64,000 bases of DNA from a virus: the IMG/VR virus record IMGVR_UViG_3300045988_110030, positions 90,200-154,199 of that record; one strand, 5' to 3'. Of this stretch, positions 40,006 through 47,381 are shown in pieces. The first letter of the stretch is position 1. Every line of letters starts with the position of its first letter. Made by a program: the position numbers and the translations under genes. The notes below the pieces were generated by a model. The model was not told the DNA's origin. It ran no database searches and worked only from the letters and a program-made list of their open reading frames with translations.

Positions 40006-40368
40006 TTATGCGCCTATGGCTGCCTCTAAATTTCCTATAATATCAGTTTCTATCTCATCGATTTTATCATCAATGGTTGAAACCGCATTCTCTAAATCCC
40101 CTACAATACTTTCCATATCATCAACAACCGCCTCCATATTAGCTACAGCCTCATCTGATTGATAATATCTTTCTGTATCTTGTAACGACTCCGGCATATT
40201 GTCTCTTGATTCTGTCTCTTCATCTAAAATCATATCAACATCATCCTTGGCTGAATCCAAATTATGCCTAACCTCTGACAGCTTTGATTTGATAAACTCA
40301 AGATCTGTTTTATGCTTTTCCAAATTGGAAATAATATCCTCTATTTTCTTACGTCTTTTGCTGTTCAT
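40006..40368 (-). CDS. Hypothetical acidic coiled-coil protein (120 aa).
   Basis: ORF. Confidence 0.45.
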   Translation of the reverse strand: MNSKRRKKIEDIISNLEKHKTDLEFIKSKLSEVRHNLDSAKDDVDMILDEETESRDNMPESLQDTERYYQSDEAVANMEAVVDDMESIVGDLENAVSTIDDKIDEIETDIIGNLEAAIGA

Positions 40369-41786
40369 GCTTTTATTCTATTATAATATTCGATAATCTT
40401 TTCTTTTCTATCTCCTGGTTTTACTGCCATATTCTCAGCCAAGAACCTAAAATACGACACCGGTATGTCCTTGAATCTAATTCCTTCATATTTTCCAAAC
40501 CACATTATTATACTGTCAAGATCGTCTTCTCTCCTACCATCTCCATTTACGGATTTAAGCGAGGCTGCCCGGCGAAGGATCTCGTCTTTGGTAATAATAT
40601 CACCCATCCTTATATTGGACAGAAGTTGATCGCCGGCAAACATACACCATCCCTTAGAAGGAAATTGTTCGATCGTTAAATCTTCTATCCGGCCGAAACG
40701 CCTCATGTTGTCGCAGCAATCAACTATCAGTGCCTCTTTCTTGTCAGGATGGATGCGGACGGCTCGGCCTACAATTTGATAGAATACTGAATATGAGAAC
40801 GTTGGTCGTCCAAACATCACACAATCAAGTTCAGGAAAATCAAATCCGGTAGCAAGCGTTGAATAATTAAACACGACCTTTAACTTACCTTCTTTGAAAT
40901 CGGATATGATTTGCTCTCTTTTCTTTTTGGTTGTTAGCGATGTTACGACACCTGTTATGGCTCCCATCCTGGCATTCATGAACTCGGATATTCTATTACA
41001 TGATTCGATAGAATCCATGCAAACCAAAATGGCTTTACGCTCGTTCATAAGTTGAAGAAGGCGCTTGTAGATAGAGTTGTTTAAGCCGTTTCGTACAATG
41101 CTTTCTTTAATAGATTCGTTGGTGTATTCGGCTCCGGTACTGTTTAACATCAGAGCCGATTCATCAAACGACCATCGTTCGTACTTAAGTGGACACCAAA
41201 ACCCTTGAGAAGTTAGTTCTTGTATTTGAGTCACATGAACTATTTTCTTGAAGAAGTTATGCTCGTCTTTCGTCAGCATATTGAGCTTGCTGTAGTTTCC
41301 TTCCAGCATGGAACTGTAGGTTCGGAGGCGGCAGGGAGTGGCGGTGAAGCCCAGCACCTTCGCCTCTGGGAACCTGTTCATAAACTCCATAAATTCAGAA
41401 CCTTCTTCAGGAGAATACCCGCTATGCACCTCATCTATCAATAATGTGTCTATCCCTATATCTTTCAACCTTGCTACGTCTTTCTTTATGCTTTTAAGTG
41501 TAGCATAAGTCATAGCCGATAACTCTTTTTTTTTACATGAAGCAGAATATATGGTAGGTTTAGAACCGAATGATACAGCCTTCGCATAATTCTGCTCCAG
41601 AATCTCTTTAGATGGCTGTAATACAAGGATAGGTCTTTTTAATTCATGAGCTATCTTGCTAATTATCAAAGACTTCCCCGCTGCACACGGCAAGACTTCT
41701 ATGCCAGGCTTCTTAGATCTTCCTGTAAGGAACTTAAGCCCGGCATCTACTGCCTCTTTTTGGTAAGGTCTAAGTTCAAAGCCCAT
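40365..41786 (-). CDS. Superfamily-2 DEAD/DEAH-box helicase (473 aa).
   Basis: Walker A is LPCAAGKS. The DEAH-like motif is LIDEVH. Motif III is GFTATP. Motif VI is QIVGRAVR. Confidence 0.8.
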   Translation of the reverse strand: MGFELRPYQKEAVDAGLKFLTGRSKKPGIEVLPCAAGKSLIISKIAHELKRPILVLQPSKEILEQNYAKAVSFGSKPTIYSASCKKKELSAMTYATLKSIKKDVARLKDIGIDTLLIDEVHSGYSPEEGSEFMEFMNRFPEAKVLGFTATPCRLRTYSSMLEGNYSKLNMLTKDEHNFFKKIVHVTQIQELTSQGFWCPLKYERWSFDESALMLNSTGAEYTNESIKESIVRNGLNNSIYKRLLQLMNERKAILVCMDSIESCNRISEFMNARMGAITGVVTSLTTKKKREQIISDFKEGKLKVVFNYSTLATGFDFPELDCVMFGRPTFSYSVFYQIVGRAVRIHPDKKEALIVDCCDNMRRFGRIEDLTIEQFPSKGWCMFAGDQLLSNIRMGDIITKDEILRRAASLKSVNGDGRREDDLDSIIMWFGKYEGIRFKDIPVSYFRFLAENMAVKPGDRKEKIIEYYNRIKA

Positions 41787-42652: not shown

Positions 42653-43672
42653 TCATCGTTTTATCTTTTTAGACGGATCCCAATCCGAAGAGAAAGGGCA
42701 TTCGTTTTTGTTATGTAATCCAAAGTCACAATAGTAACACAGTGCTGACGGGCAGGGTAGCTTGTTTTGCGGAACAGGCTGGCTTAGGGTGGCACGCCGC
42801 TTGCTATACCTGGCTCCTTCTGCTCCCTGGATGTATGCCTGAAATGTTTTTACACTATTATCTTCAAAATCATACATTTTAGACAAAGTGTCATTTAGCA
42901 TCTCTATAGATTTTGTTTTACGTTCCTCATCCACCTTAACCTTTTGGTATTGTCTGGTCCTGGTAAAGAAATAGATGTTCATATCTGGAAGAACTCCACC
43001 ATATTTTCTATAGATGTAAAATGAATATATAGGATGCTGTAAATTCGTTTCCAACTTCTTAGAATCAAAAACCTTATTACCTGATTTCCAATCTATGACA
43101 TAATGGTGAACTACGTTCTTGCTTTTTATAGCCAGATGAAGGTCTACCGATCCTACTATGTACACATGAGTATGAATTACTCCATTTATGTTAACAGGCT
43201 TAGGAAGACGGTACGGCAGCACAAAATCTTCTTCGACTCCAACTATAGCGCCGTGTCTGATAAGTTTCTCGCAGGGATTAAGATCACTATCAGCTATCAT
43301 AAACCTATTGCCGTCTTTTTTGAACAGATCCACAATCCAAGCAAGAAGCTCTCCAGATTGCTTCATGGCTATCATCATATTTTCCGGTGATTGCCAAGGT
43401 ATGTCTTCTTGGTAAGCATAGTAACTTATAGCTTCCCCCAGGTCTTTGCCAGAAGGCTGTCTTCCGTTCTTGAAGAAGTATTCCAGTGTCTTATGAATAA
43501 CCGTACCATAAGACGTAGCTTCTTGTTTTTCCGTAGACCTTTTGCCCTCCACGTAAGTTTTATACCATTTCATTGGACAAGTAAGAAACGTATCTATCTG
43601 GGAATAAGATATGGCAAGACGTTTCACACCATTAAACTCCTTATATAGCAAATGCGTTTCCGGGACCATCAT
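42653..43672 (-). CDS. RecB/Cas4-family PD-(D/E)XK nuclease with a C-terminal Cys cluster.
   Basis: The N-terminal motif is YSQIDTFLTCPMKWY. The DxK motif is VIDWKSG. The C-terminal cysteines (CPSALCYYC…ECP) resemble the Fe-S-binding tail of Cas4/AddB-type nucleases. Confidence 0.65.
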   Translation of the reverse strand: MMVPETHLLYKEFNGVKRLAISYSQIDTFLTCPMKWYKTYVEGKRSTEKQEATSYGTVIHKTLEYFFKNGRQPSGKDLGEAISYYAYQEDIPWQSPENMMIAMKQSGELLAWIVDLFKKDGNRFMIADSDLNPCEKLIRHGAIVGVEEDFVLPYRLPKPVNINGVIHTHVYIVGSVDLHLAIKSKNVVHHYVIDWKSGNKVFDSKKLETNLQHPIYSFYIYRKYGGVLPDMNIYFFTRTRQYQKVKVDEERKTKSIEMLNDTLSKMYDFEDNSVKTFQAYIQGAEGARYSKRRATLSQPVPQNKLPCPSALCYYCDFGLHNKNECPFSSDWDPSKKIKR

Positions 43673-44028
43673 AAGTCATTGTCTTTAAATCCTTCCGGGT
43701 AATATACGACATACTTCTTACCGTCTTCTGGTGTCATGGCAAACTGCATGTAGTTATTACGATTACGATGCTTGCCATCCAATCCTCGTTTCCAATACAG
43801 GATACCGTCTATATCCACATAAGATCGGCCGCGGTCGGCTCTAACCACGTCCGTGTGTAGCAGATACCCGTCGGAAGACACAATCCATGCTTTATCCCCT
43901 TTGTTTAAATAAGATATTCTTTTTCTTACAACAACCTTTTTCTTATTATCCAATACAAATTCCTCATCCGTCATATTCTTCATCCTCCTCTTCTTCTGTT
44001 TCAAAATCAATTCCATAACACTGATCAT
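43669..44028 (-). CDS. Hypothetical protein (~100-119 aa). The likely start is the internal MTDEEFV….
   Basis: ORF. Its start is overlapped by a 35-aa acidic mini-ORF (MDFGQDLEPEELTGHYDQCYGIDFETEEEEDEEYDG) at ~43980-44087 on the minus strand. Confidence 0.45.
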   Translation of the reverse strand: MISVMELILKQKKRRMKNMTDEEFVLDNKKKVVVRKRISYLNKGDKAWIVSSDGYLLHTDVVRADRGRSYVDIDGILYWKRGLDGKHRNRNNYMQFAMTPEDGKKYVVYYPEGFKDNDL

Positions 44029-44071
44029 AATGTCCGGTCAGTTCTTCTGGTTCTAAATCTTGTCCAAAATC

Positions 44072-44113
44072 CATATTAAAAATATATTAATACATATTAA
44101 AAATATATTAATC
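44072..44113. repeat. Tandem 21-bp direct repeat (CATATTAAAAATATATTAATA / CATATTAAAAATATATTAATC) in the intergenic region upstream of the 43669-44028 gene.
   Basis: Directly read. Two perfect copies apart from the last base. Confidence 0.6.
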
Positions 44114-44212
44114 AATAAAGCACTAAAAATCACTATTCCTGCTGGCATGAAATCTATAAATGCAGCTTTTGCTTCTTCAATTAGGCCCAAGTGTAACCTT
44201 GGGCCATTGTAT

Positions 44213-45913
44213 TTATTTTTTGTCATCTCCTTTTAACTTCTTTAAAGTATCTGCAATCGGAAGCTGATCAATGACTCCCAATGCCGGAGCGACGGTCTTA
44301 ACAACATTGTTAAGGAAATTACCGGTACTGTTCTGACCGCCGTCAAATACCGTGATGTTTCCGAGGTTAATGTGCTCGAACGCCTTAACCTGTTCTCCAG
44401 CAATTTCTTTCCACTGATTAACCATCTTGTACTGGATGGCTATCTGAGGATTGGATTCTGCTGCTTCCACCATAGCCTTAAATCCGTCGGCTTCTGCCAT
44501 CAACGACTTTTTCTTACCTTCGGCTTCTGCCTCCAGCTTCATCTGAATAGCTTTTGCTTCCGCTTCTGCTTTTGCCAAATGTGCTGCTGCTTCGGCATCA
44601 GCCCGGCGTTTGATCTTCTCAGCTTCAGCATCAGCTTGCAACATAGCCTCCTGCTTCTGAATTTCAGCCGGCACAATCTTTTCAGCTTTAAGCGCAGCTT
44701 GAACCTTCTTAGCTTTAGCTTCTTCCACTTCTTTATCAGCAAGCTCTTTTGCCGTTTTTACAGCCGCTTCCGACTTAACCCTCTCTTCTCCAGCCTTCTT
44801 TTCTGATTGAGCTTTGATAACCTGTAATTCTGATTCTGATACAGCAACCTCTTTCTGGGCATTGTTATAACCCACAGATGCGTTTTTCTCAGCTTCAGCT
44901 TTCTTGATCTGAGCTTCGGAGTCTTGGATTGCTATAGCTGCTTGTTTATCAGCCTCAGCCTTATTCTTTCCGACTTCTTCCATTCTTTCAGCCTCAGCTT
45001 TGTTTACCTCAAGTTCTGCCTTAGATCTTGCGATCGCTGATTCCTTATCAGCCAAAGTCTTTGCAATAACCGCAGCCCTATCTCTATCGGCTTGAGCTAC
45101 ACCGATCTGTTTTTCTTTATCGGTTAAAGCCAAAGCTACTTCTTTTTCTTTCTTTGTTTCAGCTACTACCGTTTCCTTTTCTTTTTCAGTATAGGCAATT
45201 TGAATCTCTTGCTCTTTTTGGGTATTAGCTACAGCCGTTTCTTTTTCCTTTTGCTGTACAGCAATCTTAATAGCACCCAGCTTTTCCTGTTCTTCGATAT
45301 TAGCCTGTGCTTCGTTCAGGGCCTTACTTTCAGCTTCTTTGCCAAGATTCATGATATAGCCGGCTTCGTCTCTGATGTCACTGATGTTGATATTTAGGAG
45401 GTAAAGGCCTAACTTATTAAGTTCGTTATCAATGTTTTTTCTTGCCTTATCCAAAAACTCATCCCTGTCAGAATTAAGTTTTTCAATCGTCATTTCAGCA
45501 ATGATCAAACGCATTTGGCCATAAACGATATCCGTAATAAGATTTTCAGTAGATTCAGTATCCATCCCCAAAAGCCTTTCTGCTGCATTCTGCATAATTT
45601 CAGGATTTGTGCTGATTGCTACTGTAATAGTAGTAGGTACATCCACTCTGATATTTTGAGACGACAAAGCACCGGTGAGCCTACAATCTATTTGCATAGG
45701 CTCCATAGACAAAATATCATAGCTTTGAATAATAGGCAAGACGAATGCCGCTCCACCATGATATAATTTCGCCGATTTCTTTTCCCCACCTGTCTTACCA
45801 TAAACGACCAAGACTTGATTAGGCTTACATCTACGATACCTTGATAAGACTCCGATGATTGTCAAAATAATCACTACAGCTAAAATAGCTGACACGTACA
45901 TGATTGTTGTCAT
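44213..45913 (-). CDS. Flotillin-like SPFH/band-7 domain protein (566 aa), bacterial FloT/YuaG-like.
   Basis: An N-terminal TM is followed by an SPFH domain (…VLVVYGKTGGEKKSAKLYHGGAAFVLPIIQSYDILSMEP…). A very long Glu/Ala/Lys-rich coiled coil (EA repeats) and a flotillin-type C-terminal domain follow. It sits directly downstream of an NfeD-like gene, as in yuaF-floT operons. Confidence 0.8.
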   Translation of the reverse strand: MTTIMYVSAILAVVIILTIIGVLSRYRRCKPNQVLVVYGKTGGEKKSAKLYHGGAAFVLPIIQSYDILSMEPMQIDCRLTGALSSQNIRVDVPTTITVAISTNPEIMQNAAERLLGMDTESTENLITDIVYGQMRLIIAEMTIEKLNSDRDEFLDKARKNIDNELNKLGLYLLNINISDIRDEAGYIMNLGKEAESKALNEAQANIEEQEKLGAIKIAVQQKEKETAVANTQKEQEIQIAYTEKEKETVVAETKKEKEVALALTDKEKQIGVAQADRDRAAVIAKTLADKESAIARSKAELEVNKAEAERMEEVGKNKAEADKQAAIAIQDSEAQIKKAEAEKNASVGYNNAQKEVAVSESELQVIKAQSEKKAGEERVKSEAAVKTAKELADKEVEEAKAKKVQAALKAEKIVPAEIQKQEAMLQADAEAEKIKRRADAEAAAHLAKAEAEAKAIQMKLEAEAEGKKKSLMAEADGFKAMVEAAESNPQIAIQYKMVNQWKEIAGEQVKAFEHINLGNITVFDGGQNSTGNFLNNVVKTVAPALGVIDQLPIADTLKKLKGDDKK

Positions 45914-45944
45914 AACTTTTAAAATTTAATTGTTGATAAAAAAA

Positions 45945-46439
45945 TTAGATACTTAATTCTCCTTCTTCGTATTTTATATTCACCTTGTCACCGTTTTTGT
46001 AATTTTTCCCAGACAAGCATCTTACTCTTATTTGTTCCTGTCTTCCATTTCTGGTAATATTTACCATATAATGATCTTTCCCTGATCTAAATATTATTTC
46101 CACTTCTCTACCATTTAAATCTTCTGGACATTCGTATATTGTTTCTTGTTTTAGCTTAAGAAGTAACTTATATACATAAAACAAAACGATAAAGAAAAAT
46201 AACCCTATTACGGCCCCTACTAAATGGGAACCTGAAAAGTAGGTAGTCCAGCTATATCCAAGAATAAAATGCGTTATACCTTTGAATGATATGATGTCCG
46301 ACAAAGACATACTTAAATCAGAAGCGCCATCAATGTCAATATCCGTATCCAGATCAGATCCTAATATCGACAATAAAAACTGTATAACAAAAGCAAATGA
46401 TGCTATTAAAGCCATGCATAAAATTATATCATTTCCCAT
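45945..46439 (-). CDS. NfeD-like membrane protein (164 aa), the short YuaF-type flotillin partner.
   Basis: Hydrophobic N-terminal TM helices are followed by a C-terminal beta-rich, OB-fold-like domain. The gene is immediately upstream of the flotillin gene in the same orientation. Confidence 0.65.
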   Translation of the reverse strand: MGNDIILCMALIASFAFVIQFLLSILGSDLDTDIDIDGASDLSMSLSDIISFKGITHFILGYSWTTYFSGSHLVGAVIGLFFFIVLFYVYKLLLKLKQETIYECPEDLNGREVEIIFRSGKDHYMVNITRNGRQEQIRVRCLSGKNYKNGDKVNIKYEEGELSI

Positions 46440-46680
46440 GTCCTTCTGTTTTTATTTTGTAAACAAGATCAGTCATATCTTTGATGGATTTAATATTGTC
46501 ATCATTAACAACAATATTGAATTTTTGTTCCACCATCATCTCGAGTTCAATTTGATCAAGAGAATCTAATCCAAGTTCTTCAAACGACACATCTTCTTCA
46601 TGAACTATATCCATTTCCGAATTAAGAAACTGAGTAATAATTATATCCTCTATTATCTTTCTGATTTCTACTTTTTCCAT
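46429..46680 (-). CDS. Acyl carrier protein (83 aa).
   Basis: The phosphopantetheine attachment motif (…EELGLDSLDQIELEMMVEQKF…) is present on a small acidic protein. The gene overlaps the NfeD start by 11 nt. Confidence 0.7.
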   Translation of the reverse strand: MEKVEIRKIIEDIIITQFLNSEMDIVHEEDVSFEELGLDSLDQIELEMMVEQKFNIVVNDDNIKSIKDMTDLVYKIKTEGHGK

Positions 46681-47381
46681 TGCTTTCTAATTTTATTAAA
46701 TAAATACGTTTTTATGTTTTTCAACCTCTCTTTGTCTGTTTCCGAACTTCCGGTAAACAAATAATCCGGATTTCCTTTAGCCGGCGGCGTAGGCAATTTA
46801 GATACGGCAAACAACCAATCCATTTCCTTATTCTTCTTAGACTCCAAATAAGGCTCGGTAGCGATCTTAAATTTTTCAGCTATTAAGTCAAAGAGCTTTG
46901 AGTTTTTAAGGTTCATATGGACTGAAAAAGCCTGAGAAGGCGGTTTCCATATGAAGTTACATAAGCTCATTGTGTAATCTCCTGACTCTGCTATATAAGA
47001 TTCTGTTACCTGAAGTATGACCTCTTTCTTAAATGAGGTGTTACCCATAAACCAACACAATCTGGATTCCGCTTCTTTTCTGCTGACACCTATGTCTTTT
47101 GAATATGATTCGTACATTCCTATCATAATCTTCAACGTTTCCAGAATCTCGTCCGTCATTTCCGGTGTCTCTATATAATTCACAAAAGACGTTCCTTTGT
47201 TGGTTAATCTCATCACGCCTGATTTTAATTTCTCAACCAGGCCAAGTTCTATATATCTACCAGTATCTTCTTCCGGCATGGCTTCGATCATAACCGTATC
47301 CTTCTGTCTTATGGCAAGAAGATTGGCAAGATCATTAGGAGTCATATCTGATGCTGCAAGTTGTCTGAAATTGATGTACAT
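46668..47381 (-). CDS. Hypothetical protein (237 aa) in the same operon as ACP–NfeD–flotillin.
   Basis: ORF; 13-nt overlap with the ACP gene. Confidence 0.5.
   Translation of the reverse strand: MYINFRQLAASDMTPNDLANLLAIRQKDTVMIEAMPEEDTGRYIELGLVEKLKSGVMRLTNKGTSFVNYIETPEMTDEILETLKIMIGMYESYSKDIGVSRKEAESRLCWFMGNTSFKKEVILQVTESYIAESGDYTMSLCNFIWKPPSQAFSVHMNLKNSKLFDLIAEKFKIATEPYLESKKNKEMDWLFAVSKLPTPPAKGNPDYLFTGSSETDKERLKNIKTYLFNKIRKQWKK

Follow-up and report, generated by a model that had tools for sequence, protein, structure and literature searches.

What is a flotillin, a membrane scaffold, doing in the genome of a bacteriophage, where did it come from, and which of the adjoining genes belong with it? 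These questions are raised by 64,000 nucleotides of the virus record IMGVR_UViG_3300045988_110030 (positions 90,200 to 154,199 of that record), here called the window and numbered from its first letter. Four consecutive minus-strand open reading frames (ORFs) of 237, 83, 164 and 566 codons (46668-47381, 46429-46680, 45945-46439 and 44213-45913) encode a winged-helix protein, an acyl carrier protein (ACP), a short NfeD-like membrane protein and a flotillin. The first two genes overlap by 13 nucleotides and the ACP and NfeD-like genes by 11, and a gap of 31 nucleotides separates the NfeD-like gene from the flotillin gene. A first-pass annotation of the sequence described these ORFs correctly and read them as a single ACP-NfeD-flotillin operon. 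We find that the conserved unit is the NfeD-like and flotillin pair, not the four genes. The pair was very probably acquired from a Bacteroidales host lineage, and the explanation that we favor, with confidence not far above even, is that this host-derived cassette occupies a cargo slot of the phage genome and helps to maintain the host membrane during infection.

Phage identity of the locus

The window region is collinear with, and over 8 kb 93.6% identical in nucleotide sequence to, the complete 151-kb genome of the human gut phage crAssE-Sib (OR575929.1), which contains terminase, portal, capsid and tail genes. PMC11054128 places that phage in Epsilonunovirus, a genus proposed within the epsilon crAss-like phages, and collinear near-identity to this classified genome places the window in the same genus. 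The same flotillin (97-100% identity) is found in the same place in at least 158 viral contigs of IMG/VR (75-155 kb, many of them 140-155 kb). Phage replication genes lie on both sides, with the NfeD-like/flotillin cassette located among those for DnaB, a primase and a nuclease. The first-pass annotation had made its reading depend on the contig not being chromosomal or prophage-flanking host DNA; the crAssE-Sib match and the IMG/VR contigs identify it as phage DNA.

The delimitation of a four-gene operon fared less well. All four genes lie inside a co-directional array of ~28 kb, and a scan for sigma-70 promoters and for terminators returned 20 sites where 18.8 were expected and no minus-strand terminator, Bacteroides and crAss promoters being outside the coverage of the scan. 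No promoter or terminator signal above chance thus sets the four genes apart from the array.

The flotillin and its periodic coil

The flotillin gene (44213-45913, minus strand) encodes 566 residues. Residues ~5-24 (MYVSAILAVVIILTIIGVL) are hydrophobic by direct reading of the sequence and form a putative membrane anchor. They are followed by the SPFH/Band_7 domain (residues 30-211, 45281-45826; Pfam PF01145, E=2.5e-25, 90 bits against a cutoff of 23.6), a long coil (residues ~206-470, 44504-45298) and a C-terminal Flot domain (residues 450-559, 44237-44566; PF15975, E=1.3e-9, 38.7 bits against a cutoff of 27). Both domains pass their thresholds, confirming the assignment of an SPFH-containing flotillin. 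The best NCBIfam match is FloT (NF058507; 146.6 bits, E=1.2e-42), below the equivalog cutoff of 700 bits; by these profile scores the protein is a family relative of Bacillus subtilis FloT, not an equivalog. Its nearest solved structures are human flotillin-2 and flotillin-1. No HflK/C model is found among its Pfam and NCBIfam matches, the best of which are Band_7, Flot and FloT, and a single SPFH gene is present. The statement that phages rarely encode membrane scaffolds holds up: flotillin-type matches occur in nine of 50,697 deposited phage records, just two of the nine covering at least 80% of the query, and no PHROG family was matched by the flotillin, the NfeD-like protein or the 237-residue protein.

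The coil had been described as an EA-repeat coiled coil. It is long, as claimed, but it is really an array with 11-residue periodicity, with a Fourier peak at ~11 residues and self-identity peaks at lags of 11, 22 and 33 across residues 206-470. In-frame changes of length are also concentrated in it. Among relatives with 90% identity or more, drawn from short-read assemblies, in-frame insertions and deletions of 11, 22 or 33 residues occur at 11 or more distinct positions, and there are also in-frame deletions of 74-159 residues that leave both terminal domains in place. Indels in 11-residue steps would lengthen or shorten the scaffold wall without disturbing the helical register.

The partner protein

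The 164-residue product of the gene at 45945-46439 (minus strand) has three transmembrane helices, an acidic DxDxD loop and a C-terminal OB domain. In its AlphaFold model, helices at residues 2-25, 52-69 and 72-101 precede a six-stranded beta domain at residues 112-163 (45951-46106), a predicted partner-binding OB fold for which solved NfeD domains are the best match. Homology leads to the same family. The gene directly upstream of flotillin in a Paludibacteraceae chromosome encodes a protein 37% identical over its full length (E=7e-28), which scores 28.8 bits on the Pfam NfeD model, just short of the cutoff of 29.1. Among 15 members of the NfeD-like family, three reach PF01957 at E<=0.1 (best, 28.8 bits against 29.1) and none matches the YqiJ Pfam families at that threshold; the motifs QF..S, DxDxD and SFKG..HF are invariant across the phage and bacterial sequences of the 15-member alignment. 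A 36%-identical viral protein in a library of viral structures bears the name "NfeD-like C-terminal domain-containing protein".

The 164-residue protein itself has no match to Pfam NfeD (PF01957), YqiJ or NCBIfam models, even at E<=10, and its family profile has none among PDB sequences. Pfam likewise detects no ClpP-like serine protease domain of the kind found in long-form NfeD (1510-N type). Almost all of its homologues in a collection of 5.8 billion proteins come from the same phage group. We conclude from predicted fold and bacterial homology that it is a divergent NfeD-type protein. The short NfeD-like membrane protein of the first-pass annotation is therefore upheld, although below the Pfam threshold; of the domain checks that the annotation had proposed, Band_7, Flot and PP-binding pass and NfeD does not.

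As a separate observation, the NfeD-like allele of the window differs from those of most IMG/VR relatives (L088-L103) at 15-31 of ~100 synonymous sites, typically 25-31, while the adjoining 237-residue protein is 98-99% identical in IMG/VR relatives. This juxtaposition suggests recombination mosaicism in the region.

A two-gene unit in a cargo slot

Comparison of related phages separates the pair from its neighbors. The interval between the gene for the 237-residue protein and that for a PD-(D/E)XK nuclease (window 43672-46668) differs in content from phage to phage, and we therefore regard it as a cargo hotspot of epsilon crAss-like phages. In the window it holds the ACP, the NfeD-like protein, the flotillin and small ORFs, and a sister species (L254/L255; 77% identity in the 237-residue protein) has the same set, with ACP, NfeD-like and flotillin genes in the same order. 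The slot content is different in five other relatives, which have neither the NfeD-like gene nor flotillin. The L002/L003 lineage (61%) combines the ACP with a DNA methylase, ORFs of 98 and 53 codons and two radical S-adenosylmethionine (SAM) enzymes; L313 (59%) has a DNA methylase and a gene for 102 residues; L311 (63%), one gene for 101 residues; L312 (76%), genes for 107 and 241 residues; and L166 (57%), genes for 105 and 176 residues. The ACP thus follows the 237-codon gene in three of the seven lineages, in one of them (L002/L003) without NfeD or flotillin.

The converse arrangement occurs in a second viral lineage from the human gut, represented by 53 loci on contigs that are mostly 165-193 kb long. 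Here the NfeD-like gene stands directly upstream of flotillin in 52 of the 53 loci, 17-30 nucleotides away in most of these, and the pair is kept across flotillins that share 57-100% identity (657 residues in L173:5468-7974; also L258-L310). Within 10 kb of these loci we found no homologue of the ACP, the 237-residue protein, DnaB or the nuclease, apart from one weak ACP-like match ~10 kb away at a single locus. The bacterial loci that were examined likewise show no ACP next to the pair. The conserved unit is the NfeD-like gene plus flotillin. Four genes as one module cannot be reconciled with relatives that have the 237-codon gene, with or without the ACP, and no flotillin, or with a second lineage that has the pair without the ACP.

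Origin of the cassette

The closest non-viral relatives of both genes are in the Bacteroidales. In a scan of one genome per bacterial species, flotillins 64-66% identical over the full length were found in Bacteroides faecichinchillae, B. salyersiae, Bacteroides sp. KFT8, Parabacteroides massiliensis, Leyella stercorea and others; identity fell to 46-48% in Paludibacteraceae and to 31-39% in other phyla. In 17 of 17 Bacteroidales loci, the gene immediately before flotillin is an NfeD-like gene of the phage type (33-39% identity). The neighbors of the bacterial pair include ilvD/B/N-type genes and GAPDH, or PhoH, and show the copies to be chromosomal. The earlier recognition of a bacterial operon order, NfeD and then flotillin, is borne out in a closer relative than B. 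subtilis: the same pair with the same spacing is present in the chromosomes of Bacteroides, Parabacteroides, Leyella and Paludibacteraceae.

In a neighbor-joining tree of 493 trimmed columns, the flotillins of the two epsilon phage species cluster in one clade, which has the Bacteroides/Parabacteroides/Leyella group as its sister and lies inside the Bacteroidales. In 200 bootstrap replicates, the grouping of phage and Bacteroides-group sequences was recovered 200 times, the Bacteroides group without the phages 189 times, and the larger group that adds Paludibacteraceae 177 times. The phage proteins are ~72% identical to the Bacteroides-group flotillins in the trimmed columns, and the capture is therefore not recent. 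The flotillins of the second viral lineage and of Vibrio phage KIT04 fall on separate branches and so point to independent acquisitions. To the question, left to phylogeny by the first-pass annotation, of recent capture from the host or a conserved phage lineage, the answer is that the genes are not recent arrivals and that they have been kept in two phage species. Taken together, we hold acquisition of the NfeD-like and flotillin pair from a Bacteroidales host lineage to be highly probable.

The bacterial flotillins have a peculiarity of their own. Those of Bacteroides, Parabacteroides (Tannerellaceae) and Leyella (Prevotellaceae) are mutually 85-97% identical (L174-L185, L197, L202), which is unusually high across families and may reflect horizontal spread among gut Bacteroidales.

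Selection and loss

Synonymous sites have reached saturation in the comparison of the window with the sister species (proportion of synonymous differences, pS, 0.69-0.85). The flotillin is nevertheless 83% identical in amino acid sequence, with a proportion of nonsynonymous differences (pN) of 0.107 against a pS of 0.69 and a dN/dS of ~0.06. It is as constrained as DnaB (74% identity) and the nuclease (78%); the NfeD-like protein is 62% identical. Judged by these substitution patterns, the NfeD-flotillin pair is kept under purifying selection since the two phage species split.

The flotillin is also frequently lost. We selected 76 complete loci through the 237-codon gene (98-99% identical), a choice that is unbiased as to flotillin; 19 of them have no flotillin, and 18 of those 19 retain an intact NfeD-like ORF. 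The flotillin-less variants keep the ACP. The commonest junction, seen as a blastn gap in 11 loci, removes ~44091-45942; the missing segment begins immediately past the NfeD stop codon and stops within the 3' end of a 57-codon ORF, with A/T-rich microhomology. A second junction is shared by three loci, and unique ones in three or more further loci bring the number of different junctions to at least five. Fusion proteins produced by other deletions were seen in independent ENA and Logan assemblies. The flotillin is dispensable to the phage. When we asked whether selection on the NfeD-like gene is relaxed where flotillin is missing, we saw no difference (pN/pS ~0.09-0.18 versus 0.12-0.13), in a comparison with little power.

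Neighboring genes

The ACP (46429-46680, minus strand; 83 residues) is a well-supported member of its family. It passes the PP-binding model (PF00550; E=1.5e-7, 32 bits against 20.8), matches the phage ACP family phrog_5934 (E=5e-11) and resembles type II ACPs in the PDB. Its DSLD motif and Ser40 (codon 46561-46563) are intact, and the Asp-Ser pair is invariant in ~160 relatives, as the first-pass annotation of an intact phosphopantetheine site would lead one to expect. In the L002/L003 ACP (L002:6675-6938), the phosphopantetheine serine is replaced by aspartate (DLGFDDLD). ACP identity between the window and the sister species is 39%. The further suggestion that coupling to an ACP hints at lipid remodeling found no support, as no phosphopantetheinyl transferase (PPTase), acyltransferase or lipid enzyme is annotated in the 151-kb crAssE-Sib genome. 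We also considered, and set aside, an acyl-ACP thioesterase gene beside the Paludibacteraceae NfeD-like gene as a possible link to the ACP; it follows ilvD/B/N-type genes and appears to belong with them. As a side observation, translation of the ACP gene is coupled to that of the MarR-like winged-helix gene in the replication block, with no partner enzyme annotated.

The 237-residue protein (46668-47381, minus strand) has an N-terminal MarR-like winged helix and no match in Pfam, NCBIfam or PHROGs. It is present in many relatives without flotillin; its gene belongs to the conserved backbone of the replication block and lies outside the membrane module. On the other side of the pair, a hydrophobic ORF of 57 codons (44053-44226, minus strand), uncertain as a gene, overlaps the flotillin stop codon by 14 nucleotides. 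Its positional counterpart in the sister species has 52 codons (37% identity, dN/dS ~0.6), and it is absent from the flotillin deletion variants, having been lost together with flotillin.

Elsewhere in the replication block, an SNF2/DEAD-type helicase gene (window 40365-41786, 473 residues) is uninterrupted in the window; intein/homing-endonuclease domains interrupt its orthologues in L003, L166, L168 and L312 (607-822 residues). TnpB/IS605-type insertions occur at differing sites in the same block of relatives (L003:1592-2812, L166:1-687, L254:13180-13707 and L311:7044-8628).

A possible role in infection and its alternatives

What SPFH/flotillin scaffolds do in bacterial physiology is still little understood. 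By analogy with FloT/YuaF of B. subtilis, QmcA-YbbJ of E. coli and the flotillin-1/2 cage, the phage flotillin would oligomerize through its coil into a ring or cage attached to the cytoplasmic face of the host inner membrane, and the NfeD-like protein would dock onto this cage through its OB domain. The pair would have been taken from a Bacteroidales host lineage and put into a variable cargo slot in the early/replication array of an Epsilonunovirus-type phage. Its place among the DnaB, primase and nuclease genes suggests expression in the replication phase. The phage flotillin probably supplements, replaces or mixes with host flotillin assemblies; supplementing or mixing is probable because it is ~72% identical to the host protein, and this could also explain why the NfeD-like gene survives in flotillin-less phages. 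Long, often non-lytic infections are typical of crAss-like phages, and the most likely benefit would be a membrane that is kept organized and intact while they last. A benefit that is conditional would explain the frequent loss of flotillin. The ACP and the winged-helix protein would be separate neighbors of the cassette.

We propose this role in membrane maintenance tentatively, with rather less than even confidence. The explanation as a whole, of a host-derived two-gene cassette in a cargo slot that maintains the membrane during infection, is the best that we can offer and seems to us slightly more apt to be right than wrong. Several points weigh against it. Loss in 25% of genomes shows that any benefit is weak or conditional, and the neighboring cargo of related phages fits a role in conflict as much as one in membrane maintenance. 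The deletion variants are drawn from short-read metagenome assemblies and not from verified genomes, the AlphaFold model of the NfeD-like protein is built on seven sequences with a mean pLDDT (predicted local distance difference test score) of 73, and the trees are distance-based and contain 32 sequences.

The principal rival explanation takes up the matter of conflict: a phage flotillin/NfeD scaffold could alter the inner membrane so as to exclude superinfecting phages or to blunt membrane-damaging host effectors. DNA methylases and radical SAM enzymes, the kinds of cargo that occupy the slot in relatives, often serve phage-host conflict, and location in a hypervariable cargo slot with such contents is characteristic of conflict genes. 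The polymorphism for flotillin (absent from 19 of 76 loci) and the fast change in coil length are what fluctuating selection would yield, and the NfeD-like protein evolves much faster than the flotillin, with 62% versus 83% identity between the phage species and 35-39% versus 64-66% to Bacteroides. Yet the flotillin is under strong purifying, not diversifying, selection; none of the flotillin, NfeD-like protein, ACP and 237-residue protein matches a PADLOC model; the literature searched yielded no SPFH-type exclusion or anti-defense protein; and the argument is one from gene location only. We think a conflict role unlikely, though it deserves to be taken seriously. Its most pointed form, in which the cage is a weapon or shield at the inner membrane against superinfecting phages or abortive-infection effectors and the polymorphism, the fast NfeD-like protein and the coil steps are footprints of an arms race, is less likely again. 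If it were true, the 11-residue coil steps would change the size of the cage, and this would be a novel role for SPFH scaffolds and a new class of accessory function in the most abundant phages of the human gut.

The same scaffold could instead act as HflK/HflC do, enclosing or regulating a host membrane protease such as FtsH and so tuning how stable phage regulators are and, through them, persistence versus lysis. SPFH cages gate FtsH in Escherichia coli and HflK/C affects lambda CII, a link restated for a Crassvirales SPFH domain (preprint 10.64898/2026.08.21.746148), and Epsilonunoviruses encode a repressor and anti-repressors (PMC11054128). The protein of the window is nonetheless of the flotillin type in its Flot domain, its FloT match and its nearest structures, flotillin-1 and -2, and not of the HflK/C type; its partner is NfeD-like, not a second SPFH paralogue; and no protease gene is linked to it. 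This makes protease gating improbable. The four-gene operon of the first-pass annotation, in which acyl or lipid chemistry is coupled to microdomain remodeling, draws on the 11-nucleotide overlap of the ACP and NfeD-like genes, the invariant Asp-Ser and the shared gene order in the sister species. It is contradicted by the co-occurrence data and largely refuted: the L002/L003 ACP occurs without NfeD or flotillin and has lost its serine to aspartate, the pair lacks an ACP in 52 of 53 second-lineage loci and in the bacterial loci examined, flotillin-less variants retain the ACP, and no PPTase, acyltransferase or lipid enzyme is annotated. The two phage species moreover share 39% identity in the ACP and 83% in the flotillin, and we give this model very little credence. 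No better placed is the idea that the pair is a recently captured host fragment, functionless in the phage. Absence from a quarter of the genomes through several independent deletions is in its favor, but two species with saturated synonymous sites have retained the genes at one location, with a dN/dS of ~0.06; at ~72% identity to the nearest bacterial genes they are not recent, and the pair is conserved in a second viral lineage as well. Outside viruses the nearest homologues are Bacteroidales genes on the chromosome, as would be expected had host DNA, chromosomal or flanking a prophage, been misassembled with that of a phage; this is already refuted, to the point of negligible probability, by 93.6% collinear identity to a complete 151-kb phage, by flanking phage replication genes and by the presence of the locus in at least 158 contigs.

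That a phage family abundant in the human gut keeps a host-derived flotillin and NfeD-like protein under purifying selection argues that the scaffold matters during infection. The natural knock-outs (~25% of genomes) and coil-length variants offer a comparison set for asking what a flotillin cage does in bacteria and what depends on its size. Apart from correcting the module boundary from four genes to two, the analysis identifies a cargo hotspot in epsilon crAss-like phages, from the winged-helix gene to the nuclease gene, and supports a Bacteroidales host for an uncultured phage of a group that is highly abundant in the human gut.

Comparison with known systems

The closest known counterpart is the Bacteroidales operon (Bacteroides sp. 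KFT8, NZ_CP178209.1, ~4.55 Mb; B. salyersiae DSM 18765; Paludibacteraceae GCA_045600225.1), which has the same two genes in the same order with near-identical spacing. Its NfeD-like protein is 33-39% identical to that of the phage over the full length and shares the motifs QF..S, DxDxD and SFKG..HF. The phage copy differs in its location in a replication-gene array, in an NfeD-like protein far more diverged than the flotillin, and in the small overlapping hydrophobic ORF after flotillin, which was not seen in the bacterial loci examined.

Other NfeD-SPFH systems are more distant. The yuaF (nfeD2)-floT operon of B. subtilis, to which the first-pass annotation had likened the locus, has low sequence similarity (FloT, 146.6 versus 700 bits; no direct Pfam NfeD match in the phage protein), and the pair of the window sits in a phage genome with a Gram-negative host. 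FloT and YuaF of B. subtilis were reportedly studied by Dempwolff in 2012, and NfeD-SPFH operons are said to have been reviewed by Yokoyama and Matsui in 2020. The E. coli pairs QmcA-YbbJ (PDB 8z5g) and YqiK-YqiJ follow the same plan of an SPFH protein with an NfeD-family partner. QmcA, a weak match to the phage flotillin (E=3.8e-4), is stomatin-like, whereas the phage protein is flotillin-like, and the NfeD-like family has no YqiJ Pfam match at E<=0.1. The human flotillin-1/flotillin-2 cage (PDB 9bq2 and 9l3g) provides the closest solved SPFH relatives (E=4e-23 and 3e-18) and shares the SPFH domain, long coil and C-terminal architecture; unlike the phage protein, it is a eukaryotic hetero-oligomer that is attached by lipidation and a hairpin rather than by a transmembrane anchor of the kind that is putative in the phage protein, and it has no NfeD partner.

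SPFH genes are known from other phages, namely a flotillin in Vibrio phage KIT04, SPFH proteins in Stenotrophomonas phages DLP3 and DLP5, Xanthomonas phage X1 and Gibbsiella phage GIB1, and one in a Crassvirales genus of Segatella copri. Their products are 26-30% identical to the flotillin of the window or undetectable by similarity to it; none has been reported with a recognizable NfeD OB partner, and none has been analyzed for origin, selection or population polymorphism. The KIT04 flotillin is likewise preceded by a small transmembrane protein. In this T5-like phage (L085:2680-4350), a 473-residue flotillin follows an 82-residue protein with several transmembrane segments and a DLDD motif but no OB domain, which may be a truncated NfeD-like partner. 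Phage ACPs are also familiar (PHROG 5934), and the ACP of the window matches that family; here it is coupled to a winged-helix protein in a replication block.

The first-pass annotation considered the combination not to be a described phage module. This is correct in part: the crAssE-Sib genome in GenBank already labels the genes "flotillin family protein", "transmembrane protein" and "acyl carrier protein", while the paper on that phage makes no mention of flotillin, ACP or membranes. Our literature search found no paper describing an NfeD-flotillin pair in a phage, and "flotillin" combined with "crAss-like" returned none. The operon type is known, and two of the genes had been named in GenBank; what is new is an NfeD-SPFH operon borne by a phage.

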